From Pseudothioglobus sp. nBUS_23 (GTDB lineage Bacteria > Pseudomonadota > Gammaproteobacteria > PS1 > Pseudothioglobaceae): 32,000 nucleotides of DNA. Positions 9,654 to 23,878 of this stretch are shown here, piece by piece. A program made the position numbers and the translations under genes. The stretch covers positions 930,001-962,000 of the forward strand of contig NZ_CP179200.1 in NCBI RefSeq assembly GCF_051201565.1, in the 5' to 3' direction. A model generated the notes under the pieces. It ran no database searches. It saw only the letters and a list, made by a program, of their open reading frames with translations, and was not told the DNA's origin. The stretch's first letter is position 1; every line of letters begins with the position of its first letter.

Positions 9654-9682
9654 TTGATAACAATTGAACTGCGGCGAATCAA
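9654..9682 (+). promoter_or_regulatory. Candidate promoter of tRNA-Arg copy 1
   Basis: TTGATA-17 nt-AATCAA about 10 nt upstream of tRNA; same layout as copy 2. Confidence 0.3.
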
Positions 9683-9691
9683 CTAAACATT

Positions 9692-9768
9692 GCGCTCGTA
9701 GCTCAGCTGGATAGAGTGTCGGCCTCCGAAGCCGAATGTCGGGTGTTCGAATCACCTCGAGCGCACCA
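9692..9768 (+). tRNA. tRNA-Arg (anticodon CCG), copy 1
   Basis: Hand-folded cloverleaf: acceptor GCGCTCG/CGAGCGC, D stem GCTC/GAGT, anticodon stem TCGGC/GCCGA, loop CTCCGAA, T stem GGGTG/CACCT with TTCGAAT loop, encoded CCA. Confidence 0.9.
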
Positions 9769-9834
9769 AATTTTCTACATATACCATAAGGCTTTCAGGG
9801 CTTTGCCCTAATCCAAATCAATCCTCCAAACGAC

Positions 9835-9860
9835 GAATTTCGTGCAAATTTCGTGCACTT
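9835..9860 (+). repeat. Left copy of 26-bp perfect direct repeat (2 x AATTTCGTGCA); candidate att or arm-type integrase site
   Basis: gaatttcgtgcaaatttcgtgcactt is identical to 23734..23759; lies 14 nt upstream of the integrase ATG. Confidence 0.8.
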
Positions 9861-9874: not shown

Positions 9875-10876
9875 ATGGCAAGCATACAAAAAGTAGTGAA
9901 TAAGAAGGGCGTCTCATATAGAGTTTATATCCGAAGAAAGGGATTACCCAATATTAATAAGACCTTTCCTTATAAGAAGGAAGCAAGAGACTTTATTTTA
10001 AAGATAGAGGAAAGTGAGATAAGTCACAGAGCCTTCAGCTCTAAGATGAACTTTAATACTCTTACAGGGATGTATCTAAGTAACGAGTACCTAGGGACTA
10101 AGCCGCAGATGCAAAGAAGCAGGCTGAAACACTGGCTTAATCATATGGGCGAGATGCCTATTATTGATATCCATAAAGAAGATATTTCTGCAGGCTTGGA
10201 TACGCTTCCTAAAAAGCTTAGCAATGCCACCGTTAATAAATACAAGAAGTTGGCATCCGTTGTCTTTAACTATGGAATCAGAGAGCTAGGTCTAACCGAG
10301 AACCCGACGCGATATATACGCTCTCTGCCTGAAAAGAAGGGAAGGACAAGATATTTATCAGATAATGAGAGAAAACGCCTATTTAGAGCTTGTAGGACTT
10401 CAAAATGGGAGTTGCTCTATCTACTTGTCTTAATGGCAATCACAACAGGAGCGAGGAGGGGAGAGCTACAAAGTTTGAGATGGAATGACATAGATTTTGA
10501 GAAACAAGCTGCTTATGTCAACATTTCTAAAAATGGAGAAGCTAAAGTATTGCCTTTAACGCCCGATGTTATTAATCAGCTTCAATTTTTTAATCAATAT
10601 GATAGTTCTCTAATATTTGGCTCAAAGATTACTCCATCAAAACCTTATGTCTTCTATAAACCTTGGAGGAAGGCAGTGGAAGAAGCAAATCTTGAAGACT
10701 TTAGATTCCACGATTTAAGGCACACTACAGCATCCTATTTAGCTCAAAATGGTGCAACTCTTCTTGAGATAGCAGATGTCTTAGGTCATAAACAAATAGA
10801 GGTGACAAAGCGTTATGCTCATCTCTGCATTGAGCATAAGTCGAGCCTTATAAATAGAGTGATGGGTAGTATTTAG
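9875..10876 (+). CDS. int: Tyrosine recombinase / phage-type integrase with AP2-like N-terminal arm-binding domain
   Basis: Catalytic ARRGEL (R), HDLRHT (HxxR), LGHKQIEVTKRYAH (Y); N-terminal KKGVSYRVYIRRKG; GGAG Shine-Dalgarno 7 nt upstream. Confidence 0.9.
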   Translation: MASIQKVVNKKGVSYRVYIRRKGLPNINKTFPYKKEARDFILKIEESEISHRAFSSKMNFNTLTGMYLSNEYLGTKPQMQRSRLKHWLNHMGEMPIIDIHKEDISAGLDTLPKKLSNATVNKYKKLASVVFNYGIRELGLTENPTRYIRSLPEKKGRTRYLSDNERKRLFRACRTSKWELLYLLVLMAITTGARRGELQSLRWNDIDFEKQAAYVNISKNGEAKVLPLTPDVINQLQFFNQYDSSLIFGSKITPSKPYVFYKPWRKAVEEANLEDFRFHDLRHTTASYLAQNGATLLEIADVLGHKQIEVTKRYAHLCIEHKSSLINRVMGSI

Positions 10877-10924
10877 TATCAGAATAAACTACAATGTTTT
10901 TATACGTATAAATTAATATTTTAA

Positions 10925-12058
10925 ATGGAAGAATGGGAAAATTTTAATTCTCCTGATGAGTGGGAAGAATATTTTGTAAGACAAAAAATACGAAGCAAAA
11001 GGATTCTTAAACCAATTATCGCAAGCAATGAGGAGTTTCAGGGGGAATGGCAAGATTATGTCACCAAATGGCTTGGTGAGCAAATGCTTTACAATGGTGA
11101 TATTGAAGATTTTATAAAAACTGAGATTCATAGCGAAAGAACTGGGATTTTAATCCTCTTCCTAAAGATGCTCATTAAAGACTTTAGTCAAAAAGAACTT
11201 AAATTTTCAGATTTACAAAAAACCTCTGATGCAGATATTTATTTTGAACTAGCACTTGCATTAGCGGATATTAAATATCTATCTAGAAAATCATTAAATG
11301 ATGATGATGTAACTAGGGAAGTTATTGAAGAGGCTACTCGGCTCACATCGAATTATTCTAGACCAATTGAAACCCAAATTGCTGGAAAAAAGTATTCTGA
11401 CTCAAGAATGCTAATTTATCTAGATGATATAGATGCTGCATTGAGTATTTATTTAGAATCTGAAATTAGACATAGTGGAATTGACCTGTTATTCATTACG
11501 CTTTATGCCGACCAAGAAATCATCGCTTATATAGACGCAGCAGGAAAATCCAAATACTTTAAAGATGAACATTCTATGAAAAGCTTATTTAACTCAGATT
11601 TTTCAACCTCATTAGAAAGGGAGGAGGAATCAAAACTTCGAGCTGAAAAAGTATTTAGTAATAATAGTTTTGGAAGTTACAAATATATTGCATTATGGAT
11701 TATTTCTACTGTAATTGTATTATTAATAGCTACAAGCTTGGAGGTAAATGGAATCCTACCTGATGCCTATGGAATTGGGTCTTTATTTCCTATGTTTATC
11801 TTATATATTGTAGTAAGCTTTGTTCTTGGTTCTAATGCTCAAAAGAAACTGGATAATCCTAAAAAATATTTTCCAACATTAACGATGATTAGAAATATGG
11901 AGAATTTTTATTTTGCTATTAGACAAAAAAAACAAATGCTATGGAAAAGGGATGTAAAAAAAGAACTAGCTTTGTTGACAGATGCTGGTGCAGTTATGCC
12001 TGAGGGAATAATGAAAATAATTGCAGATATGGACAAAAGAGACAAAAGGTGGTTTTAA
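10925..12058 (+). CDS. Hypothetical protein: ~250-aa acidic cytoplasmic domain, 2 TM helices, basic C-terminal tail
   Basis: Long ORF; TM segments YIALWIISTVIVLLIATSL and IGSLFPMFILYIVVSFVLG; no motif I recognise. Confidence 0.6.
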   Translation: MEEWENFNSPDEWEEYFVRQKIRSKRILKPIIASNEEFQGEWQDYVTKWLGEQMLYNGDIEDFIKTEIHSERTGILILFLKMLIKDFSQKELKFSDLQKTSDADIYFELALALADIKYLSRKSLNDDDVTREVIEEATRLTSNYSRPIETQIAGKKYSDSRMLIYLDDIDAALSIYLESEIRHSGIDLLFITLYADQEIIAYIDAAGKSKYFKDEHSMKSLFNSDFSTSLEREEESKLRAEKVFSNNSFGSYKYIALWIISTVIVLLIATSLEVNGILPDAYGIGSLFPMFILYIVVSFVLGSNAQKKLDNPKKYFPTLTMIRNMENFYFAIRQKKQMLWKRDVKKELALLTDAGAVMPEGIMKIIADMDKRDKRWF

Positions 12059-12095
12059 AAAACCCTATTCTAAAAAGTTTTCAGGGCTTTAGCAC

Positions 12096-12123
12096 TTGAC
12101 TTTTAAGCTAAATAATATATGAT
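12096..12123 (+). promoter_or_regulatory. Candidate sigma70 promoter for 12228..12982 gene pair
   Basis: TTGACT-16 nt-TATGAT in the 169-bp gap after the 377-aa ORF. Confidence 0.35.
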
Positions 12124-12227
12124 TTAAGTGTAAGAAATAAAAGATTTGTTCACTCAAAGAACTAGGCGGTTGACCTCTATTGTACGCCTTGGGATTTTCC
12201 CTTAAGTACTCAAAAAAGGAGACAGCA

Positions 12228-12740
12228 ATGTCATACCAAAACCAATATAATAAAGACCACTTAGATATCATCATAGGTCCACCTGGACAGGAAAGACTCA
12301 TCGACTCCCTTTATCGTTGTGCTGAAAAGCATAATATGACTATTGATGAAGCCTGGTCAAAGCACGTAGAAAATAGAGCTGATAATCTTATGAAGCCTTT
12401 TTTAAGCTTTGATAGTTTTAGCGATATCTTTACCGCTTTTCTAGGAGAGGAGATTTATGTTCAGGATTACTTTTTAAGTCACTACTATGCTTTTTCTGCC
12501 AATGGGATGCTAATGGCTAGAATCAAAAATCCTGAGGATAGACAAAAATATACAGCACCAGCTCTTAATTTTCAGGCTAAGAACTTGCTTGATGTTAATG
12601 GCAATCCAATCAATATAAGAAGATTTGATTCCGACAGGAGGAAACAATTCCAAGAATTATTTATGCTTATATTTAATGCGAGTTGGGCGTATGTGACTAT
12701 TTCATATGATTATATGTCCATAAAAAAGGGGGCTAAATAA
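12228..12740 (+). CDS. Hypothetical cytoplasmic protein (170 aa)
   Basis: ATG preceded by AAGGAG Shine-Dalgarno (aaaaaggagacagcaATG); the TTG at 12180 in the track is less likely; stop overlaps next start (TAATG). Confidence 0.6.
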   Translation: MSYQNQYNKDHLDIIIGPPGQERLIDSLYRCAEKHNMTIDEAWSKHVENRADNLMKPFLSFDSFSDIFTAFLGEEIYVQDYFLSHYYAFSANGMLMARIKNPEDRQKYTAPALNFQAKNLLDVNGNPINIRRFDSDRRKQFQELFMLIFNASWAYVTISYDYMSIKKGAK

Positions 12741-12982
12741 TGCAAATTGATAAAAATACTCAAGCAGCTTTTTATTTTTATTCAGAGATGGTTAAAGATA
12801 GTCGTGGTTCACGTCCACGTGGTGCAGATGCTGAGTGGTTTGTTTCTTTAACTGAATCTGAAAGACAGGCTGAGATTCAGAGACACATCGATAGCGTTAA
12901 TGAGATGACTGAGTTTCTAGAAGCCGAATACAATGCTGATATTAAATACTTAAAGTCGTTTGGCGATTTTTTGAAAGAATAA
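12740..12982 (+). CDS. Hypothetical small acidic protein (80 aa), translationally coupled to upstream ORF
   Basis: TAATG overlap; no recognised motif. Confidence 0.55.
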   Translation: MQIDKNTQAAFYFYSEMVKDSRGSRPRGADAEWFVSLTESERQAEIQRHIDSVNEMTEFLEAEYNADIKYLKSFGDFLKE

Positions 12983-13054
12983 ACTCTGCATAATGATTAT
13001 GTGAATTGATACAAATAGGTATATTAAATTGTATTTACTTATTAATTGAATTTA

Positions 13055-13480
13055 ATGGATAAATATAACTTAAGTCGCTTCATAGAGGCTCAAGAGACAA
13101 CCTATGAGGGTGCTATGTTGGAGCTTGCTCGGGGCAGAAAAGAGAGTCATTGGGTCTGGTATGTCTTTCCTCAAATCGAGGGACTTGGTAAATCAGATAC
13201 AGCCAAATTTTACTCGATTAAAACTTTAGAGGAGGGCAGGGCTTATCTTGAGCATCCTGTGCTAGGTCCAAGACTCTTTGAGGCTTGCGAAATACTGCTT
13301 AGCCTTAAAGATGCTTCAATGAATAAAGTTATGGGATTTCCAGATGATTTGAAGCTTCTATCCTCAATGACCTTGTTTGAGTATATATTGGATGAAAGTT
13401 CTATCTTTACTAATATTATTGAGGCATATTTTGATGATGAGCGAGATGAGAATACATTAGAGATTATTGATGTTTCGTGA
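13055..13480 (+). CDS. DUF1810 family protein
   Basis: L.RFI.AQ...Y..A..EL..G.K.SHWVWYVFPQIEGLGKS matches the DUF1810 core; ATG at 13055 preferred over TTG at 13046. Confidence 0.7.
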   Translation: MDKYNLSRFIEAQETTYEGAMLELARGRKESHWVWYVFPQIEGLGKSDTAKFYSIKTLEEGRAYLEHPVLGPRLFEACEILLSLKDASMNKVMGFPDDLKLLSSMTLFEYILDESSIFTNIIEAYFDDERDENTLEIIDVS

Positions 13481-13693
13481 TGGAAGTGAAGTTAAAACCA
13501 AGTGCTTACTAGGTGCAGACTTAAGAAGTACAAAAAAATATATAATCAGACTTGAGGCAATTGTATTAATAATAGCCACCTGGGCAAAGTAGCAAACTCC
13601 GCTGCACAATTAGCATTTATTTTATTATGGGTTAATCTACACCATAAATTCATCAACAAAACATAAATCAATTCGTCTTACTTCATAGAATAG

Positions 13694-13790
13694 TAGTGTT
13701 GTTCTCCTAAAACACTAAAGTGAGATTAGATTGAATAGCGGACATTCTCACATCAAAGGTGCCTCTCCTAATTTCCTTTGAGTGTTCGCT
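13694..13790. ncRNA. Two stem-loops with identical TCTCCTAA loop motif (candidate structured RNA or leader)
   Basis: Hairpin 1: 13694-13700/13711-13717. Hairpin 2: inner stem 13753-13759/13775-13781 plus outer stem 13737-13744/13783-13790. The 8-mer TCTCCTAA is in both loops. Confidence 0.25.
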
Positions 13791-13806
13791 ATAAATTTGG
13801 TAACTA

Positions 13807-14001
13807 ATGAAACGACTACTACTACTTTTCTGTCTAACTTCTTTAAGCGTATCAGCCAGTCAAGAACAAATGATGTCAACTATCAATAATATAGCTGAAA
13901 TGACTCAAGAAGAGTATTTGAAAGAAATACTTCAAGCCACGGTATGCAGATGGGAATTAACTGAGGAGGAAAGATTATTTATCGAAAGCTCTTACTTCTA
14001 G
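13807..14001 (+). CDS. Small secreted hypothetical protein
   Basis: Signal peptide MKRLLLLFCLTSLSVSAS; first ORF of the dense array. Confidence 0.5.
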   Translation: MKRLLLLFCLTSLSVSASQEQMMSTINNIAEMTQEEYLKEILQATVCRWELTEEERLFIESSYF

Positions 14002-14135
14002 TTATTTTTTGCTCTCAATCAGTCTTTGCTGACTTAGACCAAGCTATTGCCTATGCTGAAGCAGGTGATGTTAGAAATGGACAAATAGAACTTTATAACA
14101 TTAGCCAAAGAGCACTGGAAGGACAACCCAAGTCG

Positions 14136-14405
14136 ATGTGTGAGTTTGGCACAATGTATAAGAAAGAAGGCTACTGGATTGTTCAGAGTGACAAAGATGC
14201 TTCTGACTGGTGGCTTAAATCAGCAGAAATGGGGTATGCCCCTTGCCAGTTTAATATTGGTGCTGCTTATCTTATTGGTTCAGGCATTGAAAAAGACTTA
14301 TCAAAAGCAAAATACTGGCTTCAACGAGCAATAGATAGCACCTATGAGGAGTTTAGTGAGTCAGCCAAAGTTCTTTATGCAATCCACGAACTCGATAAAT
14401 ACTAA
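14136..14405 (+). CDS. Sel1-like repeat (SLR) protein; frame open back to 13965 and encodes a signal peptide with no canonical start
   Basis: SLR consensus ...A..W..KSAEMGYAPCQFNIGAAYLIGSGIEKDLSKAKYWLQRA; upstream in-frame RKLLLLVIFCSQSVFA/DLDQAIAYAEAGD. Confidence 0.6.
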   Translation: MCEFGTMYKKEGYWIVQSDKDASDWWLKSAEMGYAPCQFNIGAAYLIGSGIEKDLSKAKYWLQRAIDSTYEEFSESAKVLYAIHELDKY

Positions 14406-14587
14406 TGCTAATTCCTATCTTAATTTTTAAGCTATATTTAACTGTTGTTAATTCAATTATTTATGGATTTAGTACTGTTTTGGGCTTATTACTGTTTTCT
14501 ATTGCTGTAAGCAATGCAGATGTGAATCAACATCAAATCTATTGTGAAAAATCAGCTATAGAAGAAGAGGTTTGTGAATCAAGATAA
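14405..14587 (+). CDS. Small hydrophobic protein, family A (member 1)
   Basis: TAATG coupling; paralog of 14603 and 15543 ORFs (hydrophobic N-terminus, YCE.S....C tail). Confidence 0.65.
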   Translation: MLIPILIFKLYLTVVNSIIYGFSTVLGLLLFSIAVSNADVNQHQIYCEKSAIEEEVCESR

Positions 14588-14602
14588 CTCATCATTAGAA
14601 TA

Positions 14603-14788
14603 ATGCATATTCCTGTATTAATCTTACAGTGGTTGGTTTCTATAGCTGATGCAATTATTTATGCAGTTGTTAGCTTCATTGGCATAATCATAGTGGTTAT
14701 CGCTTTTGCTATGGCAGATGGAGATGATTACTGGGCAGAAGGAGGAATGCCACTTCCTGGTGAATCTAAAATTGAATCAACAGACTAA
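14603..14788 (+). CDS. Small hydrophobic protein, family A (member 2)
   Basis: WLVSIADAIIYAVVSF compared with WLVSIAEAIILSVMSF in 15543 ORF. Confidence 0.65.
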   Translation: MHIPVLILQWLVSIADAIIYAVVSFIGIIIVVIAFAMADGDDYWAEGGMPLPGESKIESTD

Positions 14789-14791
14789 CAA

Positions 14792-15004
14792 ATGAATTTA
14801 GATAACCTTTCAGGAGTGCTCTTTATATATTTAGTTTTAGGCTTACCAATTATGACAATAATTGGTGTCATTTTAATCCCTCGTTTTTATTCAAATGAAA
14901 AGTACAAGAATATGTTCAGAGCATTAAGATTGTTTTTTATTATTGTGCTGATTCCTCTTAGCTTTTATATATCTGGAAGTTTGTTAAGTTTGTTGTACGA
15001 TTAG
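14792..15004 (+). CDS. Small 2-TM membrane protein
   Basis: Two hydrophobic helices separated by a basic loop RFYSNEKYKNMFRALR. Confidence 0.55.
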   Translation: MNLDNLSGVLFIYLVLGLPIMTIIGVILIPRFYSNEKYKNMFRALRLFFIIVLIPLSFYISGSLLSLLYD

Positions 15005-15043
15005 ATGATATGAAAAAACTACTACTATCAAAACTTTATAAAG

Positions 15044-15307
15044 ATGGATAGCATTAGACTTTTTAAAATAATTAAGGTTGGACTTATTTTAGTTTTTCTA
15101 TTTATTATTACTTCTTCTTTTTGGGACTGGTTGGCTGAAGATTCAAAAGAAATAAAAGAACTTATAAAGCAGGGTTATCTTCCTTCTGACTATCAGCACG
15201 AAGATATATTTAAATTATGTAACCCTGAGACGGATGAAGAAAAGGTAGCTCTTGAAAAAGCTCCTGATTATTTTTGGACTTGTATGATAAGAGGTGGCTG
15301 GACCTGA
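15044..15307 (+). CDS. Membrane-anchored small protein with GYL..D...C...C domain (family C-related)
   Basis: ELIKQGYLPSDYQHEDIFKLCNPE aligns with QLIERGYLSEDFTTIEYLNFCENIE of 15760 ORF. Confidence 0.6.
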   Translation: MDSIRLFKIIKVGLILVFLFIITSSFWDWLAEDSKEIKELIKQGYLPSDYQHEDIFKLCNPETDEEKVALEKAPDYFWTCMIRGGWT

Positions 15308-15321
15308 TATGAATAACCAAA

Positions 15322-15546
15322 ATGATTAACTTTCTCAATTCAGTTCCGCTTTATCCAGGATGGCTATTTATCTTCTTTTCAGGGTTATTTTTCATAAAAC
15401 TCACAAAGCATCGTAAGCTAGGAAAAGTTATCCTAATTATATTTTCTATCCCTATTTTGTTTATTGTTGCCTCAACGATTTTTGGGATATGGCTAATGGA
15501 GACTAATCCAGGAGTTTTTCCAGGTGGGGAGGCATATACACCTTGA
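15322..15546 (+). CDS. Small 2-TM membrane protein, family B (member 1)
   Basis: HRKLGKVILIIFSIPILFIVA compared with DRRKLGISYLIIFSIPIILFLIA in 18908 ORF. Confidence 0.65.
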   Translation: MINFLNSVPLYPGWLFIFFSGLFFIKLTKHRKLGKVILIIFSIPILFIVASTIFGIWLMETNPGVFPGGEAYTP

Positions 15547-15758
15547 TTACAATCATAACGACAGCTTTTGTCTGGTTAGTATCTATAGCAGAAGCAATAA
15601 TTCTTTCTGTTATGAGTTTCTTTGCAGTCATACTTATGCTCTGGACTTTTACTATGGCTGGAATCTCTGCAGATGAGAATGGACAGCAACTCTATTGTGA
15701 AACTTCTAAAACTGGAGTTGAGAACTGCTTTATGAGGGAATGGAGCATAGTAGATTAA
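15543..15758 (+). CDS. Small hydrophobic protein, family A (member 3); TTG start
   Basis: TTGA overlap with upstream stop; the conserved family region lies upstream of the first ATG, which supports the TTG start. Confidence 0.6.
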   Translation: MITIITTAFVWLVSIAEAIILSVMSFFAVILMLWTFTMAGISADENGQQLYCETSKTGVENCFMREWSIVD

Positions 15759-15759
15759 T

Positions 15760-16056
15760 ATGAACAATGCCTGGACAGAAGAACAAACAAAGGAATCTGT
15801 AAGGAGGCAAAAGAAAGCCCTATTAATCGCAATTCCAAGCATTCCTATAATATTGTTTGCTTTAATGGCAGCATTTGGCTACATTCTCCACCATTGGTTT
15901 ATGGAACCCCCAGAATATCATTTACAAATAGAGCAATTAATTGAAAGAGGATATCTAAGTGAAGATTTCACTACTATTGAATATTTAAACTTCTGTGAAA
16001 ATATAGAGCAGAGCTTATATGACACTTATGATTATGTCTGCCGATGGATTGATTAA
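15760..16056 (+). CDS. Membrane-anchored WTEEQTK-family protein (family C)
   Basis: MNNAWTEEQTKESVRRQKKAL + TM; paralog of 7510 ORF outside the island. Confidence 0.65.
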   Translation: MNNAWTEEQTKESVRRQKKALLIAIPSIPIILFALMAAFGYILHHWFMEPPEYHLQIEQLIERGYLSEDFTTIEYLNFCENIEQSLYDTYDYVCRWID

Positions 16057-16067
16057 AGAAACAAAGT

Positions 16068-16095
16068 TTGACTTTAGTTCATTCTGAAATATAAT
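16068..16095 (+). promoter_or_regulatory. Near-consensus sigma70 promoter placed for a leaderless or very short-leader transcript of 16102 ORF
   Basis: TTGACT-16 nt-TATAAT; -10 ends 6 nt before the ATG at 16102. Confidence 0.4.
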
Positions 16096-16101
16096 CGATG
16101 T

Positions 16102-16527
16102 ATGAAAAAACTACTATTAATCTTGTTACTATCTCTTGGCTTAATTAATTCATCAAATGCTGATTCCTACAAGCCCGGCATTAAAGAATATATGGAGTTT
16201 AAATTCACAGAAGCAATTGAAATACTAAGTCCTCTTGCTGCTGAAGGTGATGATGAAGCTCAGCTATACTTGGGAGTGATATATAGAAATGGTGATGGGG
16301 TTGAGGTAGACAACTTTAAGGCATTTAAGTTCTTCAAACAATCAGCTGAACAAGGTAATGCCTGGTCCCAAAAACATTTAGCTTGGATGTATATTGATGG
16401 AAAAGGGGTTCTTAAAGACTATAAGCAAGCTAAATATTGGTTTCAAATGGCATACGCTAATGATGACCCCTGGATAAGGGAAGATGCAAAAGCTGCTTGG
16501 GATGAGTTAGAACTTTGGAAGTATTGA
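16102..16527 (+). CDS. Secreted Sel1-like repeat protein
   Basis: Signal peptide MKKLLLILLLSLGLINSSNA; AEGDDEAQLYLGVIYRNGDGVEVDNFKAFKFFKQSAEQGNAWSQKHLAWMY.DGKGVLKDYKQAKYWF. Confidence 0.8.
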   Translation: MKKLLLILLLSLGLINSSNADSYKPGIKEYMEFKFTEAIEILSPLAAEGDDEAQLYLGVIYRNGDGVEVDNFKAFKFFKQSAEQGNAWSQKHLAWMYIDGKGVLKDYKQAKYWFQMAYANDDPWIREDAKAAWDELELWKY

Positions 16528-16528
16528 T

Positions 16529-16924
16529 TTGAAGAAAATACTCCTACTAATATTATTATTTTCTTTTTCATCGCACAGTTTAGCAAAGGTGGGTGACAAC
16601 TACTTTTGTCTGATGAAACAATTTATGGATATTACTCCAGACAAAATATATGAAAAGCCATTAGAAGAATTTACTTTTCGAATGGAAGCAGACAAGATTG
16701 TATTTACTGTAGAAAAGGGTTATTTTGCTGGATTTGGTGAATATTTTGAATTGGAGATGTCTGATTATAGGGAATTTGGTTCTGACGAATATCCTAGAGA
16801 ATCTTTCTTTCTCAACAGAGATGATTGGAGAGTGATTAGTGTCTATGATGAAGGTCACTTTAACTATACCTATGTTGAAGGACCTCTTACAAAAACAATG
16901 ATAGCAAGATGCGGCAAGTATTAG
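16529..16924 (+). CDS. Secreted hypothetical protein with N- and C-proximal Cys pair; TTG start
   Basis: Signal peptide (M)KKILLLILLFSFSSHSLA; NYFC....IARCGKY. Confidence 0.6.
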   Translation: MKKILLLILLFSFSSHSLAKVGDNYFCLMKQFMDITPDKIYEKPLEEFTFRMEADKIVFTVEKGYFAGFGEYFELEMSDYREFGSDEYPRESFFLNRDDWRVISVYDEGHFNYTYVEGPLTKTMIARCGKY

Positions 16925-16940
16925 ACAAATTGAATTCAAA

Positions 16941-17387
16941 ATGAAAAAACTACTCCTATTGCTCTTCTCTTTAATGCTTTCCTTTAATTCTTTTGGTGAG
17001 GAGGATTTATCTGAGTATAAACTTCTTGGTCAAAAAACTGTCGTTGCTTTCAAGTGTGCCAATATCGTTACTCATCACGATTACTCTGAAGAAGTTGCTG
17101 TTGAGTGGAATCGTTTATTCAACATTGGAATGAACAGTGGAACAAAGTTGTTAGAGGCAATGAGAAGTGGAATTATTACTCGTGATTTTATGAATAAGCA
17201 TATTCCATATAGGTTGGTGTTAAGAATATCTGATAGTGGAGGCTTATTTAGTAACGACTTCATTCTTGGCGGACTTAATGAAGAGATGTTGTTGGAAGTT
17301 TATGAAAAAGTTGGCGATGCTTCAATAAGAGATACAACATCTAGAAGTATGTATTTAAAGAATAACTGTGCTTTAGTAGGAAATTAA
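16941..17387 (+). CDS. Secreted hypothetical protein with Cys pair
   Basis: Signal peptide MKKLLLLLFSLMLSFNSFG; VAFKC....KNNCALVGN. Confidence 0.6.
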   Translation: MKKLLLLLFSLMLSFNSFGEEDLSEYKLLGQKTVVAFKCANIVTHHDYSEEVAVEWNRLFNIGMNSGTKLLEAMRSGIITRDFMNKHIPYRLVLRISDSGGLFSNDFILGGLNEEMLLEVYEKVGDASIRDTTSRSMYLKNNCALVGN

Positions 17388-17391
17388 TTTT

Positions 17392-17991
17392 ATGAAGAAA
17401 CTTCTCCTCTCTCTATTTGCCAGTTTAGTTCTTATTTCTAACTATAGTAATGCTGAGATAACATCTTTTGATGAACGCTTTACTCTGCTATGTGAAATTG
17501 AAGATTCAACTGGGTTTAATTGGTCTAATGGTAATTGGTATCAAGCCAATTTTAAAGCAGGGCAAAAATATATTATAAAAAAACAGGATGATGAAAAAAG
17601 CGAAGATGCTGATGATTATGACTATGCCAAAGTAAAGAATATGTTCTGTTCTTATGGTCAGGAGGCAGAGTCCGATAATGCCAGTTACATTACTAGAGAT
17701 GGTTGTTATATGATTAAAGAATTTGGTGAAGAATCAACCGCATTTAACTCCAAATTATGCCGTGAAAGGTGGAGTAAAGATAGTCAAGGCTCTTTGAAAT
17801 TAGATAAGGTAGATTGCTCCGTGTGGGGTAACCCTGAAGTGAGGTTTAAACCAAATGGATTGATTCACGTCCACAATCTTGGTAGTTTAGAATCAAGTCC
17901 TAAAGGTGTTATAGATAATGGTGTCACCATAATTCCTCCTGACTACAAAGACTCTATGTATATAGCCTTTGGAAGATGTTCAACTATATGA
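17392..17991 (+). CDS. Secreted hypothetical Cys-rich protein
   Basis: Signal peptide MKKLLLSLFASLVLISNYSNA; FTLLCE....FGRCSTI plus internal Cys residues. Confidence 0.6.
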   Translation: MKKLLLSLFASLVLISNYSNAEITSFDERFTLLCEIEDSTGFNWSNGNWYQANFKAGQKYIIKKQDDEKSEDADDYDYAKVKNMFCSYGQEAESDNASYITRDGCYMIKEFGEESTAFNSKLCRERWSKDSQGSLKLDKVDCSVWGNPEVRFKPNGLIHVHNLGSLESSPKGVIDNGVTIIPPDYKDSMYIAFGRCSTI

Positions 17992-18425
17992 AAAAACTAC
18001 TCCTAATCTTATTTATCTCTCTTGGCATAGTTGGTTGTTCTGAAACTTCACCCCAACAAGTAAAGTTTGATGATGAGTCTTACCAATGGAAGAAGTGGGA
18101 TTGCTTCGCTTATGGTTATGCTGGAGAGTTCATCTTGTCTATTGGTTATATCCCTGAACTTGAACAAGATGGCTATTATGCTGGTAAGTTATTCTTGAAA
18201 GATGCTGAATCTCCAATCGATACAATCTACCAAATGAGAGGTGTTCAACACGAATGGAATTGGGAAGACTATAAAATTAAAATTGACTCTGATGGTACTG
18301 GAAGATATTGGGATTTCTCAGATGACGACGAAGGTGAAATGGTAAATTCTTCTGAAGTTTATGAGTGTACATCTTCGGGTTTTGTGAGTTTTAGTAAGTC
18401 CTTTGATAACTTCTTTTCCTACTAA
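17988..18425 (+). CDS. Hypothetical lipoprotein
   Basis: ATGA overlap; MKKLLLILFISLGIVGCSE lipobox; start at 17988 preferred over 17976. Confidence 0.6.
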   Translation: MKKLLLILFISLGIVGCSETSPQQVKFDDESYQWKKWDCFAYGYAGEFILSIGYIPELEQDGYYAGKLFLKDAESPIDTIYQMRGVQHEWNWEDYKIKIDSDGTGRYWDFSDDDEGEMVNSSEVYECTSSGFVSFSKSFDNFFSY

Positions 18426-18427
18426 TT

Positions 18428-18724
18428 ATGCGTAAGTATCTAATTACTTTTCTTTTAAGTCAAGACGATAAGTTTTACCACGAGGATACAGTTGGTATTG
18501 AGATGGAAGCTAATGACCTGAAAGAACTATTTAATCTTATTGGTGATGTTGAAACTGACGAAATAACTTCATCTAGAATAGTACGAGCAGTAGAAGGAAG
18601 TGGATTGGTATTTGACTCATATGCACCTATAGTGATTGGTGAGTTTAATGAAGATGGGATTCCAATAATTGTTTGGGAAGATAAGGATTACAGATTCAAT
18701 CACGAATCTAGTAATTTACATTAA
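18428..18724 (+). CDS. Small acidic cytoplasmic hypothetical protein
   Basis: ORF only; no signal peptide or TM helix. Confidence 0.45.
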   Translation: MRKYLITFLLSQDDKFYHEDTVGIEMEANDLKELFNLIGDVETDEITSSRIVRAVEGSGLVFDSYAPIVIGEFNEDGIPIIVWEDKDYRFNHESSNLH

Positions 18725-18727
18725 TAA

Positions 18728-18907
18728 ATGCTAAGAATAATAATTTTAGGTCTTTGGATTTTCTGTCTAATTAATGGGATTCAGAGGCTGCGTTCTAATC
18801 GTCAAAAGTCAGGAATAGTCCTTGTATCAATCTTCTTACTTTTTGCTTTAGTTTTGTTTATATCCTTTGCAGCTTTTGACCCAAGGTTTATCAACTATGA
18901 GAACTAA
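18728..18907 (+). CDS. Small 2-TM membrane protein, family B (member 2); 59 aa, absent from the ORF track
   Basis: My translation: MLRIIILGLWIFCLINGIQRLRSNRQKSGIVLVSIFLLFALVLFISFAAFDPRFINYEN. Same TM-RxxRK.G-TM layout as 15322 and 18908; exactly fills the gap between neighbours. Confidence 0.55.
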   Translation: MLRIIILGLWIFCLINGIQRLRSNRQKSGIVLVSIFLLFALVLFISFAAFDPRFINYEN

Positions 18908-19135
18908 ATGCTTTTAATAATCTTCTTAGTCCTTTGGGCATTCACTCTTTTTTATGGCATCAGCCTAATAAGAACTGATAGACGTAAATTAGGTATTTCA
19001 TATTTAATTATTTTCTCTATTCCTATAATTCTTTTTCTAATTGCTGATTGGTTTATTGATTTCTCTTATCTTGATTGTATGTTTAGAGGTACCTCGAATG
19101 CTGCAGAAAGGATGGAGTACTGTAGGTCACTTTAA
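18908..19135 (+). CDS. Small 2-TM membrane protein, family B (member 3)
   Basis: RRKLGISYLIIFSIPIILFLIA paralogy with 15322 ORF. Confidence 0.65.
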   Translation: MLLIIFLVLWAFTLFYGISLIRTDRRKLGISYLIIFSIPIILFLIADWFIDFSYLDCMFRGTSNAAERMEYCRSL

Positions 19136-19139
19136 TACT

Positions 19140-19727
19140 ATGACAATAAGTGAAGAACAGATAGTTATATTGGCTCAAGAATACCTCTCTAAACTGCAAA
19201 GAGCTAATGAAGTAGAATTTGCCACTAGAAAGCCGGGGGTTGGCCAAGACTACTATGATTTTATGGATGGTCTAGAATCTCAGTGCTCTCATCTAGCAGA
19301 TGACTTTAGAATTGGTTATCAAAACAAAGAAGTTGAGGCAGACATAGAGAAAGCACTTAAATCCGCCAATATTAAAGTTGATAGAAACTCTAATGAATAC
19401 AAACTTCTTGTAAGTAAGTTCTTATTTGCAGCTACAGAGGCTTGCTATGAAAGATTGAGTATGTATAAAGGTGATTTTGACTATAAATTAGAAACAACCA
19501 AACTAGCTGCTGAAGAACCACTTATTAAGAAGCAAGCTAAAACACTAGCAATTCAAGAAGAGATTAACAAGATTGCAAAAGAAATAATGGATACATATCC
19601 AACAACACCAAAGTATAACCTTGCCGAGGAAATTGCCGACTTACTTGAAAAAGATAAGATGCATCTAAATCCACCAAAATTTGAAACTATTCGTAAGAAT
19701 TATCTTTCTAAATACCCAAACTTTTAA
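19140..19727 (+). CDS. Hypothetical cytoplasmic helical protein (195 aa)
   Basis: ATG at 19140 is 4 nt after the previous stop; the track's upstream extension from 19041 overlaps the 18908 ORF. Confidence 0.55.
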   Translation: MTISEEQIVILAQEYLSKLQRANEVEFATRKPGVGQDYYDFMDGLESQCSHLADDFRIGYQNKEVEADIEKALKSANIKVDRNSNEYKLLVSKFLFAATEACYERLSMYKGDFDYKLETTKLAAEEPLIKKQAKTLAIQEEINKIAKEIMDTYPTTPKYNLAEEIADLLEKDKMHLNPPKFETIRKNYLSKYPNF

Positions 19728-19732
19728 CAAGA

Positions 19733-19801
19733 GTCCCAAAGCTCCCAAAATGTCCCACTAAATGCTTTATTAGTGGTGTCTGTAGAGTGTTCTGTGTCCC
19801 A
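19733..19801 (+). promoter_or_regulatory. Periodic TCCCA repeats and a 7-bp-arm palindrome upstream of the P-loop gene (candidate operator)
   Basis: aGTCCCAaa gCTCCCAaaa tGTCCCActaa with 9-10 bp spacing, fourth GTCCCA at 19796; ccactaa-N8-ttagtgg at 19755..19776. Confidence 0.35.
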
Positions 19802-19887
19802 ATCCAATTACTGCAAAACATCACTTTACTGAGATAATTTCCTTACTGATTGCATAACGCATCAGACAATTTAGGGAGAGTTAAAGT

Positions 19888-21369
19888 ATGACCATAGAAA
19901 ACAAAAAAAGCACAATAAAGACAGCAGACTCTATGCTAATTGAGTACGCAAAAAAAGAGTGTTGGTTGTTTTGTGATAATCAAAATGAGCCTTATGCAAA
20001 AATTCTAGTTGATAGACATATCGAAACTTGGGGGATACACTCCCAGGGTTTTGGAGACTTGCTGCGAAGTTGGTATTTTAAAAAGACTAAAAGAGGAGTT
20101 AATCAAAGCCAATTAGACAGTGCAATAATGACCATTTCAGCAATTGCTAATTATGATGGCCATCGGGAAGATGTTTATCTTCGTGTTGCTCAAATAGAAG
20201 AAAAAATATACATAGATATCTGTGATAAAAACTGGAGTGTTATCGAGGTGACAAATAGAGGATGGTCTGTCATTGATATTGCTCCTGTAGCTTTTACTAG
20301 AACCAATAATATGAAGCCACTTCCTTATCCAAAAGGCGGAAATGGCGTGAAGTATTTACTAAGGCACATAAATATACAAGAAGAAGAATTGCCTTTACTG
20401 ACTGGATGGCTTTTAATGGCTTTACAGGCTGGAGAGGGGGCTTATCCTTCTTTATTGATAAATGGGCCAGCTGGCTCTGGAAAATCAACAGCTTGCCGAA
20501 TGATTAGGTCTTTAATAGACCCAAATAAAGCAGATTTATTGACTCAACCAAGTATCAGTGATTTAAGAATTGTTGGAATGAATAACCACATACTTGCTTT
20601 TGATAACATTAGTAAAGTTAGTCCAACTTTTAGTGATGCTATTTGTAAAATTTCAACGGGTGATAATCAATCTATTAGAAGGCTATATACAACCAATGGA
20701 GAGATGACAGTTTCAATTAAGAAGCCAACTATTTTGAATGGCATTCCCGAGCTTGCAAAACGAAGTGATTTGGCAAGTAGAAGTCTAAAGCTGACACTAC
20801 AAAAAGTTAAGCACAGAAAAACAGAAAAAGAGGCTTGGGCTGATTTTAATGAAGATGCACCAAGTATTTTAAAGGGCTTACTTACTGGGCTTAGTAGGGC
20901 TTTAGCAAACCTAGAGCATACTGAAATAAATGATATGACTCGAATGGCCGATTTCTGTATGTGGGCTACAGCTGCACATACTGCTTATGGTTGGGATAAA
21001 ACCACCTTTATTAACGCCTATGCAAAGAATGTAAAAGAATCTCACATTGACTCGTTGGAATCCTCCCCTTTTGCTTCTTCTATAGTTAAGATGTGTGAAG
21101 ATGGCAGCTTCTTTCACGGAAGGCCATTAGAGCTTTTAGAGGAAATTGAATCCCAATATTCTTCTACAAAAATTACCCACTCAGTGACTTGGGTTAAGAC
21201 TGCTAAAGGTGTTATTGAACAACTCGATAGAAATGAGGAGTCGCTTGAATCTATTGGTATTTATTATCAAAAGTATAAAGATAGAACAAATAAGACATTT
21301 GTTAAAGTAGGTGACTTAGAGTTTATAAACTCATCTAGTGAGCCAACAACCCCTATTTACGATTTTTAA
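19888..21369 (+). CDS. P-loop NTPase, SF3-helicase / element replication-initiator-like protein
   Basis: Walker A INGPAGSGKST, Walker B-like HILAFDNIS, ~190-aa N-terminal domain; GGGAGAG Shine-Dalgarno; followed by iteron region. Confidence 0.6.
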   Translation: MTIENKKSTIKTADSMLIEYAKKECWLFCDNQNEPYAKILVDRHIETWGIHSQGFGDLLRSWYFKKTKRGVNQSQLDSAIMTISAIANYDGHREDVYLRVAQIEEKIYIDICDKNWSVIEVTNRGWSVIDIAPVAFTRTNNMKPLPYPKGGNGVKYLLRHINIQEEELPLLTGWLLMALQAGEGAYPSLLINGPAGSGKSTACRMIRSLIDPNKADLLTQPSISDLRIVGMNNHILAFDNISKVSPTFSDAICKISTGDNQSIRRLYTTNGEMTVSIKKPTILNGIPELAKRSDLASRSLKLTLQKVKHRKTEKEAWADFNEDAPSILKGLLTGLSRALANLEHTEINDMTRMADFCMWATAAHTAYGWDKTTFINAYAKNVKESHIDSLESSPFASSIVKMCEDGSFFHGRPLELLEEIESQYSSTKITHSVTWVKTAKGVIEQLDRNEESLESIGIYYQKYKDRTNKTFVKVGDLEFINSSSEPTTPIYDF

Positions 21370-21380
21370 TAAATAAAAAT

Positions 21381-21531
21381 TATGCAAGTTGTGTACTTAT
21401 GTGCATAGCTTGCATAGCCAAAATAGCTTAAATATTTAAAATAAATAAATACTAATGCACCAAAAACGCACCCTGAAGCACTTTAATAAAAATAGAGAGT
21501 TTGGTATGTTTTTGCCTATGCAAGCTATGCA
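21381..21531. promoter_or_regulatory. Iteron - AT-rich - inverted-iteron region; putative replication origin of the island
   Basis: tgcatagc x2 (21402-21418) and its reverse complement ctatgcaagctatgca (21516-21531) form a 16-bp perfect inverted repeat flanking ~95 bp of AT-rich DNA; extra tatgcaag at 21381. Confidence 0.45.
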
Positions 21532-21746
21532 GTATTTATTCTATTAATAAGCACTACTCTTAAGGTTTTATTTTGGATTACTTTGGCTGAATAATATAAG
21601 AACTTTAGCAAGTGAAGAAAGCCTTTACTAAGGCTCTAAGGACTCCATATTCATTATTTTAGAGCACTTAAATTACTCAGAAAGTATTGGCCTTATTTAG
21701 TACAAAAAGGAGTTCAAATTAAGTCTTATTCAGGTATAGTTTAATT

Positions 21747-22112
21747 ATGAAAAAAATACTACTTTGTGGCATATTCTTAGGTTTAAGTTTAAGTTCTTAT
21801 GCCGGGGGTTATGTTTGTACTTCCCCAAGTTTTTTTGATGATAGTACTACGATTAATGTGTATCAAAAAACTAGTAATGGTTACTTAGATAAAGAAAGAG
21901 GTGATATGTTTAATGTGAGAGAAAATGAACATCTTTTGTCTATGTCGTACAACACTCTTGATGAGGATTATGGTGCAGGTATTATGGCAGTAGTTATAAA
22001 TAAATCTGAAATGAAATTTATAAAGTCGATGACATTTTTTTTAAAGCCATACGACCCTCCTACAGTATATGACTCAGATTATAGAACTGGGGAATGTGTT
22101 TATGTTGATTAA
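21747..22112 (+). CDS. Secreted hypothetical protein with N- and C-proximal Cys pair
   Basis: Signal peptide MKKILLCGIFLGLSLSSYAG; GYVCTS....TGECVYVD. Confidence 0.6.
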   Translation: MKKILLCGIFLGLSLSSYAGGYVCTSPSFFDDSTTINVYQKTSNGYLDKERGDMFNVRENEHLLSMSYNTLDEDYGAGIMAVVINKSEMKFIKSMTFFLKPYDPPTVYDSDYRTGECVYVD

Positions 22113-22116
22113 CAAT

Positions 22117-22605
22117 ATGAAAAAATATGTCTACGTATTTGCTCTTTTAATAAGCTTACTTGGCTCTTCATTTGTCCACTCTTCAGAAGCATTACTCACA
22201 AAAGGATACAATAAAGCACTTGATGGAAATTATGGTGAGGCATATAGAATACTTCAGCCTTTAGCTTCTCAGGGCTATATTGAAGCACAATTCAACCTAG
22301 GTATGATGTTTCAAAATGGAGGAAATGGACTTCAAAGGAACTATTCAAGTTCGGCATATTGGTTTAACCAAGCAGCACTTCAGGGAGACCAAAATTCACA
22401 ATTTGAGTTGTCTGGTATTTATTACAGGGGGTTAGGAGTTAAAAAAGACCTAAGTCAAGCAAAATATTGGGCTAAATTAGCTTCGCAAGGAAGTAATCCA
22501 ACAATTGCGAGCCGCTCAAGAGAATTCCTAAAGAATCAAATGTCTTGGTGGGAGAAACAAAAGTTAGGAGCCTCTACAATCTTTGGTATTTTTACTGGAA
22601 ATTAA
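22117..22605 (+). CDS. Secreted Sel1-like repeat protein
   Basis: MKKYVYVFALLISLLGSSFVHS signal; ASQGYIEAQFNLGMMFQNG...AALQGDQNSQFELSGIYYRGLGVKKDLSQAKYWAKLA. Confidence 0.8.
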   Translation: MKKYVYVFALLISLLGSSFVHSSEALLTKGYNKALDGNYGEAYRILQPLASQGYIEAQFNLGMMFQNGGNGLQRNYSSSAYWFNQAALQGDQNSQFELSGIYYRGLGVKKDLSQAKYWAKLASQGSNPTIASRSREFLKNQMSWWEKQKLGASTIFGIFTGN

Positions 22606-22618
22606 ACTACTATATCTT

Positions 22619-23215
22619 ATGATTAATTTTATAAACAAGTGGTCAAAAAGGTTTGCAGTGATTTGGCTCATAGGATTTATAGGTATTTTGGCAATTACCT
22701 ATGCAGATTCTATTCAGAACAGCAAAGCTAAATACAGTTGGTGGTCCCCAAAATTTGCAGATATAAACCTTTTCTTACCTTATTCAGTTCAAAAGTCTTT
22801 AAGCTCCAACAATAGAGCTGCGTGTATAGCAAAAACAAACTTCCCTTTTGAACGCACAGTTATCGGTTATAGAAAACATACACTCGAGGGAACATTTTTG
22901 AACTGTGAGCCTGGAAAAAGTCATAGGGCAACAGAGTATTTGTTTATTTTATTAGTACCCTTTATTGGTCTTAACTATGTCTTACCTTGGCTTACAAGAG
23001 TGCTTGAAGGCGCAGGTAAAAATTATAAATCTAGTGCAAAAAAAGCCAAGGTCAATACAGAAAAGAATTACCTAATAGCTTATAAAGAAGTTGAGAGTGG
23101 GAAAATTAAAAGTCCAGAATTATGGGCCAAAGCATTTGCTGAAACTGAAGGCGATGAGGTCAAACAAAAAGCTCTGTATGTAGAATTAAGAACAAAGCAG
23201 CTTGATGATAATTAA
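22619..23215 (+). CDS. Membrane protein with C-terminal EVESG...WAKA...GDE..K.KALY motif
   Basis: ATG at 22619; 2 TM helices; C-terminal motif shared with next ORF. Confidence 0.55.
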   Translation: MINFINKWSKRFAVIWLIGFIGILAITYADSIQNSKAKYSWWSPKFADINLFLPYSVQKSLSSNNRAACIAKTNFPFERTVIGYRKHTLEGTFLNCEPGKSHRATEYLFILLVPFIGLNYVLPWLTRVLEGAGKNYKSSAKKAKVNTEKNYLIAYKEVESGKIKSPELWAKAFAETEGDEVKQKALYVELRTKQLDDN

Positions 23216-23239
23216 GTAGAATTTTGATATAGTTGAAAT

Positions 23240-23733: not shown

Positions 23734-23759
23734 GAATTTCGTGCAAATTTCGTGCACTT
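23734..23759 (+). repeat. Right copy of 26-bp direct repeat (2 x AATTTCGTGCA)
   Basis: Identical to 9835..9860; a degenerate extra unit aatttcggcct lies at 23721. Confidence 0.8.
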
Positions 23760-23841: not shown

Positions 23842-23869
23842 TTGGTATTGCTGGTCTGCGGCGTATATA
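23842..23869 (+). promoter_or_regulatory. Candidate promoter of tRNA-Arg copy 2
   Basis: TTGGTA-16 nt-TATATA ending about 10 nt before the tRNA. Confidence 0.4.
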
Positions 23870-23878
23870 GCAAACATT

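Follow-up and report, generated by a model that had tools for sequence, protein, structure and literature searches.

Introduction

What does a dense row of 17 very small genes, nearly all of them encoding exported or membrane proteins, do in the chromosome of a planktonic marine bacterium, and how was such a row put together? The row occupies positions 13807-19135 of a 32,000-nucleotide (nt) window of Pseudothioglobus sp. nBUS_23 (contig NZ_CP179200.1, positions 930,001 to 962,000 of the forward strand), and all coordinates below refer to this window unless a related locus, numbered with an L, is named. Pseudothioglobus (Arctic96BD-19/SUP05 group) ranks with the most numerous heterotrophic gammaproteobacteria of the sea, and to our knowledge almost nothing is known of the roles of its flexible genome; the nBUS_23 genome measures 1.79 Mb, and the array proteins are annotated there as hypothetical or as TPR proteins. 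Variable islands that are linked to tRNA genes and rich in small hypothetical genes are ordinary in marine bacteria. We found that the array is a mobile, recombination-shuffled bank of periplasm-facing, envelope-directed proteins, carried as the main cargo of what is almost certainly a single integrative element. The locus is a small and clean example of how an element that targets a tRNA gene carries cargo and of how that cargo is rebuilt gene by gene, with nucleotide-exact junctions. If its products are protective, they would be new envelope-level defence proteins and would offer a tractable test of how phage or competitor pressure maintains strain diversity in the plankton; if they are not, the locus still documents cassette exchange mediated by signal peptides.

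The array is the main cargo of an integrative element at tRNA-Arg

The window is chromosomal, with hisC, tyrA, aroA, lepB and ctp on its left and an alpha/beta hydrolase gene and proXVW on its right. ARAGORN and Rfam revealed two complete tRNA-Arg(CCG) genes between these flanks (9692-9768 and 23879-23955), and a repeat search showed that they form the cores of two 106-nt direct repeats, attL (9669-9774) and attR (23856-23961), which are 92% identical to each other and lie, as do the other parts of the element described below and the gene at 7510-7797, on the + strand. A tyrosine integrase gene (9875-10876; Pfam Phage_integrase, E = 1.3e-30; phrog_1, E = 2.2e-60) starts 107 nt past the left tRNA on the same strand and faces inwards, reading into the element, and all 28 genes from 9875 to 23647 have this orientation in the six-frame list of open reading frames (ORFs). 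In related genomes the site is either empty, with a single tRNA-Arg directly between the flanking genes (L066, L068, L087), or occupied by other DNA (L064, L069, L070), and the element was found in none of the 13 Thioglobaceae species genomes that have the tRNA-Arg locus. Because of the two tRNA-Arg repeats, the integrase and these empty or differently filled sites, we conclude with high confidence that the DNA from 9.7 to 23.9 kb is one 14.2-kb integrative element. An initial annotation, made from the sequence alone, had called the array mobile, and its position inside an integrase-bearing element with empty sites elsewhere bears this out.

A perfect 26-nt repeat, GAATTTCGTGCAAATTTCGTGCACTT, was found 66 nt after the left tRNA (9835-9860) and again, 100% identical, 119 nt before the right tRNA (23734-23759), with ATTTCGTGCA occurring twice within each copy. 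The two copies look like arm-type sites of the integrase and are candidates for that role, in which case the element may still be mobile.

Backbone genes follow the array. A 195-amino-acid (aa) protein (19140-19727) shares 31% identity with the 293-aa protein that belongs to the backbone of related mini-elements. The adjoining segment (19763-21578) carries a 493-aa helicase with a Walker A motif (19888-21369) and iteron-like inverted repeats (21381-21531), which may be a replication origin; it ends in a 22-nt, 95% complementary inverted repeat of TGCATAGC units. Locus comparison showed that this whole segment is missing from sister islands at the same chromosomal site, as a 1.8-kb presence/absence difference with a clean junction. 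The helicase family is common in SUP05/Thioglobus metagenomes, some remote members carry fusions to PrimPol, Toprim or PriCT-2 domains, and the protein shares 26% identity with a Microbacterium phage helicase/primase; scanning the helicase alignment against genomes and IMG/VR viral contigs gave no match. Relatives of the helicase occur in mini-elements of 4-5 kb with the order integrase, 257/293-aa protein, AlpA-like HTH_17 protein and helicase, and the helicase gene is 80% identical in DNA sequence to that of mini-elements with the 293-aa protein (L011-L014). Some of the mini-elements carry cargo as well: that of Candidatus (Ca.) Thioglobus autotrophicus has a type I restriction system, and that of a clam symbiont has Sel1/MORN proteins.

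Array genes encode envelope-directed proteins and most are under purifying selection

All 17 co-directional ORFs of 59-199 aa described by the initial annotation were recovered at 13807-19135 in the six-frame list, with intergenic gaps of 0-45 nt. Its assignment of the products to exported and membrane classes agreed with our hydropathy analysis and reading of N-termini, a heuristic based on Kyte-Doolittle windows, and no enzyme was recognisable. By these criteria the row is directed to the periplasm, the inner membrane or the inner leaflet of the outer membrane. Genes are named below by their start positions. Sec-type signal peptides with small residues at -3/-1 were present in 13807 (64 aa, to 14001), 16102 (141 aa, to 16527), 16529 (131 aa with two cysteines, to 16924) and the adjacent pair 16941 and 17392 (148 and 199 aa, 16941-17991), and the single lipobox (IVG|C) was found in 17988 (145 aa, to 18425). 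Nine further products consist of one or two transmembrane helices and little else. These are the paralogous membrane hairpin mini-proteins 14405 (to 14587) and 14603 (to 14788); the 70-aa two-helix protein 14792 (to 15004); the 87-aa signal-anchor protein 15044 (to 15307), with a periplasmic tail of two cysteines; the 74-aa two-helix protein 15322 (to 15546); the 71-aa hairpin protein 15543 (to 15758), with a two-cysteine tail and a TTG start that overlaps the preceding stop; the 98-aa signal-anchor protein 15760 (to 16056); and the two-helix mini-proteins 18728 and 18908 (59 and 75 aa, 18728-19135).

Several gene models required correction. The 89-aa ORF 14136 is not free-standing; it belongs to a signal-peptide Sel1 gene for 141 aa (13974-14405), of which it forms the 3′ part and which has no canonical start. 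The frame of this gene is open from 13965, with a strong Shine-Dalgarno sequence, GAGGAGGA, followed by ATT ATT and no ATG, GTG or TTG, so that the 134-nt gap previously placed before 14136 is coding; ATT may be the start, and the signal peptide is intact. Homology to the allele in L018 begins only at 14012, inside the signal peptide, and the proportion of synonymous differences from this allele is very high (pS 0.65), but the ratio of nonsynonymous to synonymous substitution rates (dN/dS) is 0.03. Furthermore, the lipoprotein starts at 17988 rather than 17976, the 98-aa acidic protein 18428 (to 18724) has neither a signal peptide nor a transmembrane helix, and 15010-15051 holds no gene and is a 13-codon signal-peptide scar, MKKLLLSKLYKDG followed by a stop, identified by repeat and junction comparison.

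The internal paralogy that had been proposed was confirmed by BLASTP of the island proteins, which gave the families {14405, 14603, 15543}, {15322, 18728, 18908} and the Sel1 proteins {14136, 16102, 22069}. Sel1 was the only family among the array proteins that Pfam recognised (PF08238; 39.1 bits for 14136, 67.3 bits for 16102 with E = 1.2e-18, and 59.3 bits for 22069, against a gathering cutoff of 30.7). A weaker pair, {15044, 15760}, was missed by BLASTP and was detected by Smith-Waterman alignment, with a score of 49 versus 23.4 ± 4.8 for shuffled sequences and 3 of 2000 shuffles reaching it; the similarity of 16529 to 21747 was not significant in the same kind of comparison. A deeper common origin of the signal-peptide proteins was also considered and rejected, because the lipoprotein family, compared by hhalign with each of 16529, 17392 and 21747, aligned over the signal peptides only.

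The fetched loci supplied an ortholog with 55% identity or more for 15 of the 17 array ORFs, 13807 and 16941 being the exceptions, and dN/dS was 0.03-0.5 in every comparison, those of the membrane ORFs of 59-75 aa included. The compared ORFs are therefore real genes rather than chance frames, and we are confident that these 15 are under purifying selection. This result bears directly on whether the row is hitch-hiking DNA in decay, a collection of dead ORFan fragments that serve no joint function. The scars, the gene without a start codon, the loss of the helicase gene in sister islands and the scarcity of known domains are in keeping with decay. However, dN/dS was well below 1 for every gene compared, including pairs of 60-87% identity, the families are maintained across many metagenomes, where clusters at 90% identity reach 280 members, and the reading frames are intact and tightly packed. 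Given the dN/dS values in particular, we regard decay as extremely improbable.

The cargo is a mosaic of gene-sized modules exchanged at gene boundaries

The assembly of the row was examined by comparison with related loci. The array is strain-variable, as had been suspected: relatives carry different subsets of its genes in different orders (L017-L026, L035-L037, L038-L063). The closest of these, L017-L022, hold copies of most array genes at 96-98% identity, and L017, L018, L020 and L021 also have the downstream cargo genes; L017 runs across the right tRNA repeat into the same alpha/beta hydrolase and proXVW flank. In these loci 14603, 15044, 16941, 17392 and the helicase gene are either missing or present as diverged alleles.

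The junctions of these differences are exact. The pair 16941 and 17392 forms a 1,047-bp indel that is bounded by an identical 18-mer, ATGAAAAAACTACTCCTA, at 16941 and at 17988; in two signal peptides this 18-mer supplies the start codon plus the first five codons, and L018 has a single hybrid copy. The gene 15044 lies in a 318-bp indel relative to L018, with a GATTA microhomology at an ATGA-type stop/start overlap. In L023 the homology of the lipoprotein gene sets in 2 nt ahead of the ATG and ends 5 nt past the stop codon. When block ends were counted over the roughly 60 related loci, which are not independent of one another, 70% of left ends of homology blocks fell within 20 nt of a start codon versus 13% at random, and 52% of right ends fell within 20 nt of a stop versus 12% at random. 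The signal-peptide 5′ motif has five occurrences in the window, where 0.01 would be expected, and each of them falls within the element; signal-peptide scars mark junctions both in the window and in L035. We conclude with little doubt that the cargo is a mosaic of gene-sized modules that are exchanged at the borders of genes, in one case or more through identical 18-nt signal-peptide 5′ ends. MKKLLL-type signal peptides are common in AT-rich bacteria and part of the similarity between such 5′ ends could be convergence, which weighs against reading all of it as exchange; the junction at ATGAAAAAACTACTCCTA is nevertheless direct evidence for signal-peptide exchange.

A second kind of shared 5′ end was found in 15760, whose first 65 nt or so encode MNxxWTEEQTK...QKKAL and an anchor. 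The same segment, at about 80% nucleotide identity, begins a 95-aa signal-anchor protein that lies outside the element, left of the tRNA (7510-7797; counterpart at L064 2173-2460); beyond it the two proteins have unrelated domains, that of 7510-7797 being cysteine-rich. Since this gene shares its 5′ segment with an array gene, the variable bank also touches the chromosomal side of the hot spot.

Array families recur at other loci and in other orders. They have a second chromosomal home in two Ca. Pseudothioglobus genomes (L023 5880-8728, L036 5510-8259), where the genes for a VIT-VWA protein and a sortase, a pair known from marine proteobacteria, are followed by relatives of 15044, 15543 and 15760. 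Elsewhere they adjoin T5orf172, MORN_2, NERD, SNase, GmrSD and MmeI genes, or, the lipoprotein gene included, stand directly after integrases that are 54-55% identical to the integrase at 9875-10876. In L046 (1193-2173) an MmeI-type (type IIL) restriction-modification (R-M) gene directly follows a trio of lipoprotein, 98-aa and two-helix genes related to 17988-19135. Single T5orf172/MUG113 modules (GIY-YIG-related) adjoin the lipoprotein gene in L023 (9559-9999), L025 (346-807), L041 (422-838) and L056 (1682-2104), and they resemble free-standing, homing-endonuclease-like insertions between genes. Fusions of Sel1 or MORN repeats to caspase-like (Peptidase_C14) or trypsin-like protease domains occur in the variable parts of related genomes (L036 257-4227, L002 2732-4603).

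We also considered whether the row is an integron cassette array and rejected this, as there are no attC sites, no room for them and no inverted repeats of that kind, and the integrase is of the tRNA-targeting phage type.

The lipoprotein and the 199-aa protein represent undescribed families

The lipoprotein (17988-18425) is the most widely re-used cassette. A profile search among 1.84 billion clusters gave 92 representative relatives at E≤0.001, and the ten closest, when looked up, were all marine-metagenome sequences. Scanning the lipoprotein and 51 relatives matched no Pfam family, MliC (PF09864) included. Residues W37, C39, G66, G85, W90, D109, F110 and C127 are conserved in the family. 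The AlphaFold model (predicted local distance difference test score, pLDDT, 88.9) is all-beta with ten strands and barrel-like. Foldseek returned no match in the PDB at E<0.001; the best weak matches (best E 0.05, TM-score 0.38-0.54) were calycins and fatty-acid-binding proteins (FABPs) and the lysozyme inhibitors MliC, PliC and PhiA, and against BFVD structures there was no match.

The gene that usually follows the lipoprotein gene encodes an acidic protein of about 100 aa of the 18428 family, which in other loci is replaced by MORN_2, T5orf172 or small membrane proteins. We considered whether the lipoprotein and its 98-aa neighbour form a co-evolving toxin/immunity pair and rejected this, as their identities do not co-vary (93% for the lipoprotein with 36% for the partner in one locus, 77% with 94% in another).

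The 199-aa protein (17392-17991) has only 18 relatives, and eight of its cysteines are invariant. Its model (m15b10666c657; pLDDT 84) predicts a disulfide-rich fold for which no PDB match had a TM-score above 0.28. The family profiles of neither protein found a match among PDB sequences.

Possible functions of the array

The initial annotation had favoured an orphan or acquired immunity bank, in which each protein neutralises a different envelope-acting toxin or lytic enzyme of competitors, with no cognate effectors in cis. A mobile, co-directional, strain-variable array of small exported proteins that includes Sel1 proteins would suit such a bank, the best TM-scores of the lipoprotein model are those of lysozyme inhibitors, and the general architecture resembles the arrays described in Bacteroidales (10.1101/471110). 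No search that could have supported this idea did so. No array protein matched a Pfam Imm, Tsi, Tai or Tli family at E≤1, a single Tis1_ImmP line (E 0.12) standing in the scan, the MliC model had no match, and repetitive intergenic sequence of the kind known from those arrays was absent: the repeats found are coding signal-peptide 5′ ends, with no local inverted repeats. The lack of co-variation between the lipoprotein and its neighbour also speaks against it. Contact-dependent attack should be rare for a free-living planktonic host, and cells this dilute should encounter phage much more frequently than attackers that need contact.

A lack of co-occurrence with toxin genes everywhere had been named as grounds for giving up the immunity idea. 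No Rhs, VgrG, CdiA or bacteriocin gene stood beside homologs in the roughly 60 related loci inspected, a limited sample of mostly short contigs, and searching the literature on Thioglobus and type VI secretion systems (T6SS) yielded nothing relevant. Where these loci hold recognisable defence genes, the genes act against DNA and are not toxins (type I R-M, MmeI, GmrSD, NERD); most of the loci are short contigs without a recognisable defence neighbour. The immunity idea is thus weakened and not refuted; we consider it unlikely, and the alternatives raised beside it, an exclusion bank or another envelope system, fit at least as well.

A related proposal is that the array holds polymorphic effector and immunity sets, in which a shared export segment joined to a variable C-terminal domain makes a bacteriocin-like effector and the adjacent mini-membrane proteins confer immunity. 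Polymorphic toxins and leader-bearing bacteriocins are built in this way, with an N-terminus that is conserved and a C-terminus that varies; several array proteins share such N-termini, and exported and membrane genes are interleaved. However, the shared segments are ordinary Sec signal peptides or signal-anchors that reach the periplasm or inner membrane only, there is no dedicated exporter or processing protease, Pfam recognised no toxin domain, and exported and membrane genes are lost independently. We regard this proposal as very improbable. A phage lysis cassette was likewise rejected, as there is no endolysin, Phage_holin_2 matches (E 0.007-0.12) fall far below the cutoff, and no PHROG lysis family was matched.

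A non-defensive role is a serious rival. The products could be ligand-binding or adhesive proteins of the periplasm and surface, a calycin-like binder together with scaffolds of the Sel1/MORN type, which would adjust how nutrients are captured or how the cell attaches to particles or hosts, as cargo of the kind carried by tycheposons, which is often adaptive or of unknown function (10.1101/2020.12.28.424599). The calycin/FABP-like barrel of the lipoprotein, the relatives beside VIT-VWA/sortase surface systems and FG-GAP proteins, and the Sel1/MORN-rich cargo of the related element in the clam symbiont are all consistent with this. The array nevertheless lacks a transporter, enzyme or regulator that could make use of such a ligand, the extreme turnover of gene presence and absence between strains that are nearly identical fits frequency-dependent selection better than adaptation to nutrients, and defence genes recur nearby; such a niche-adaptive role appears rather unlikely to us.

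Our own tentative preference is for envelope protection, possibly by the exclusion of phage or foreign DNA. We propose that the shared N-terminal export and anchor segments (MKKLLL signal peptides, the MNxxWTEEQTK signal-anchor and transmembrane hairpins) would act as short homologies, and that through these handles periplasm-facing domains would be gained, lost and re-paired. The whole row would be read as a single transcript, because the genes are tightly packed or overlap at stop/start codons and consensus scans found no terminator-like site inside the array; the best promoter-like site was at 16068-16095. The weakest steps concern the products. These would be non-enzymatic binders or blockers, namely Sel1 scaffolds, a beta-barrel lipoprotein, disulfide-rich beta proteins and small membrane proteins, and they would shield the envelope from macromolecular attack from outside. 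Exclusion of phage or foreign DNA would be favoured over toxin immunity because the carrier is satellite- or tycheposon-like, several relatives stand among restriction-type defence genes, and the host is dilute and planktonic.

Several points weigh against this preference. A defensive role is argued through guilt by association, from a small, non-independent sample of mostly short contigs, and the support from promoters and terminators is limited to consensus scans. No array protein matched PHROG families beyond Sel1, Pfam immunity families or PDB families, nor PADLOC, where 10 island proteins were searched (5 array genes among them, the small transmembrane proteins not included) and the only hit was a 12.6-bit P-loop match on the helicase. 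Relatives were absent from BFVD structures and, in scans with the helicase and lipoprotein that are pattern-based and can miss, from IMG/VR viral contigs. The similarity of the lipoprotein fold to inhibitors is below significance.

A more far-reaching reading, an 'export-handle cassette bank', appears doubtful to us. In it, integron-like shuffling through conserved coding 5′ ends (Sec signal peptides, a signal-anchor and transmembrane hairpins) would swap unrelated periplasm-facing domains in frame between mobile elements and chromosomal hot spots, so maintaining, at the level of the population, an envelope-defence repertoire built from as yet undescribed protein families and folds.

Other cargo and the surroundings of the hot spot

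The genome has about 36% GC and the array-side genes 0.34-0.35. The integrase is separated from the array by 2.9 kb with four other genes (10925-13480), which encode a 377-aa protein with two C-terminal transmembrane helices, two further proteins of 186 and 80 aa and, just upstream of the array, a protein of the DUF1810 family (13046-13480; E = 4e-53), the only one recognised. We considered the 377-aa membrane protein as a hidden effector and rejected it, as it had no match in Pfam, PHROGs, PADLOC, the PDB or plasmids. Genes like those of the array extend beyond 13807-19135, to the gene at 7510-7797 and to the right part of the element (21747-23647), where Pfam, hydropathy and comparison identified a 121-aa signal-peptide protein, a signal-peptide Sel1 protein (22117-22605) and membrane proteins of 210 and 135 aa.

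Left of the tRNA, among flexible genes, a conserved 63-aa ORF (7874-8065; L064 2537-2728) has two CxxC-like pairs and is zinc-ribbon-like, and a lipoprotein with a CxxCH haem-binding motif (8735-9163; CIGCHG) is probably a c-type cytochrome; the flexible stretch that holds the latter is missing from the empty-site genome L066. Just downstream of tRNA-Arg, L064 (4261-6213) and L017 (5504-6781) encode large proteins built from repeated zinc ribbons of the DUF4379 type (WHPTKNG...KVWWKC...GCPFCSG), that of L064 with a nuclease-like C-terminal region. These are different cargo at the same hot spot.

Comparison with known systems

Single genes that mask receptors or exclude superinfecting phage, such as T5 Llp, phi80 Cor, T4 Imm and Sp and P22 SieA, are well known. 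They resemble the array products in being small lipoproteins or inner-membrane proteins on mobile DNA that act on the envelope without enzymatic activity; they differ in being single genes rather than a bank of at least 17, and no sequence or structural relation was found (PHROG, BFVD). The lysozyme inhibitors MliC and PliC, whose fold is an eight-stranded beta-barrel, resemble the lipoprotein in small size, export, the lipoprotein form and a barrel-like model, for which they give the best TM-scores (0.51-0.54 on the target), whereas the E-values are 0.1 or worse and the array family has conserved residues of its own (W37, C39, W90, D109, F110, C127). In Borrelia and Mycoplasma, lipoprotein and surface-protein families are paralogous antigens of pathogens that recombine at a conserved 5′ end. 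The joining of conserved signal-peptide-coding 5′ ends to divergent mature domains is common to both; here, in contrast, the mature folds are unrelated and lie on an integrative element of a planktonic bacterium.

Integron cassette arrays are likewise co-directional rows of promoter-less, gene-sized modules that vary between strains. The present row differs in having no IntI/attI and no attC, and exchange appears to proceed through short homologies in coding 5′ ends and overlapping stop/start codons. The recombinase-associated acquired interbacterial defence (rAID-1) clusters of Bacteroidales combine genes homologous to T6SS immunity genes and repetitive, integron-like intergenic sequences with a XerD-like recombinase (at least 44% identical to BF9343_RS08045) directly 5′ (10.1101/471110). 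A tyrosine recombinase upstream of many co-directional small genes, location on mobile DNA and signs of active gene acquisition are shared with our locus, and at least two co-directional low-GC genes lie downstream of the recombinase, a weak criterion in a genome of 36% GC. Our locus shows neither the immunity homology nor the intergenic repeats, and the recombinase found here, 2.9 kb upstream, is an integrase that targets a tRNA and works for the element as a whole.

Phage-inducible chromosomal islands (PICIs), P4-like satellites and the marine virion-encapsidated integrative mobile elements (VEIMEs; PMC9618062) are similar in size and in a backbone that runs from integrase to primase-helicase, and relatives of the element, although not the window itself, have the AlpA-like HTH_17 gene (integrase, 257/293-aa protein, HTH_17, helicase). 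In contrast to these satellites, Pfam and PHROG found no AlpA/Stl, terS, cpm, ppi, capsid or interference gene in the window, and the pattern-based scans of IMG/VR, which can miss relatives, gave none.

The closest parallel is offered by the cargo-carrying tycheposons of Prochlorococcus, which combine an inward integrase beside a tRNA with a small module for replication and with cargo, often unknown, that measures up to about 10 kb (10.1101/2020.12.28.424599), and relatives of which were reported in Gammaproteobacteria (Hackl et al., 10.1101/2020.12.28.424599). The element likewise has a tRNA-adjacent, inward-facing tyrosine integrase, flanking repeats derived from the tRNA, a helicase/primase module at the far end and about 10 kb of cargo, and it builds variable islands in a streamlined marine bacterium; the 493-aa Walker A protein and the 195-aa backbone homolog correspond to the replication module. 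It differs in that its att repeat is the whole tRNA plus 23 nt and in that its cargo is a shuffled row of exported mini-proteins rather than a metabolic operon. Compared by layout, the element matches the tycheposon definition. Collectively, the carrier fits a described kind, and what is less ordinary is its purely envelope-directed cargo, the gene-exact mosaic and the documented exchange at signal-peptide 5′ ends, together with two confidently predicted models of undescribed families, one of them without a solved relative.

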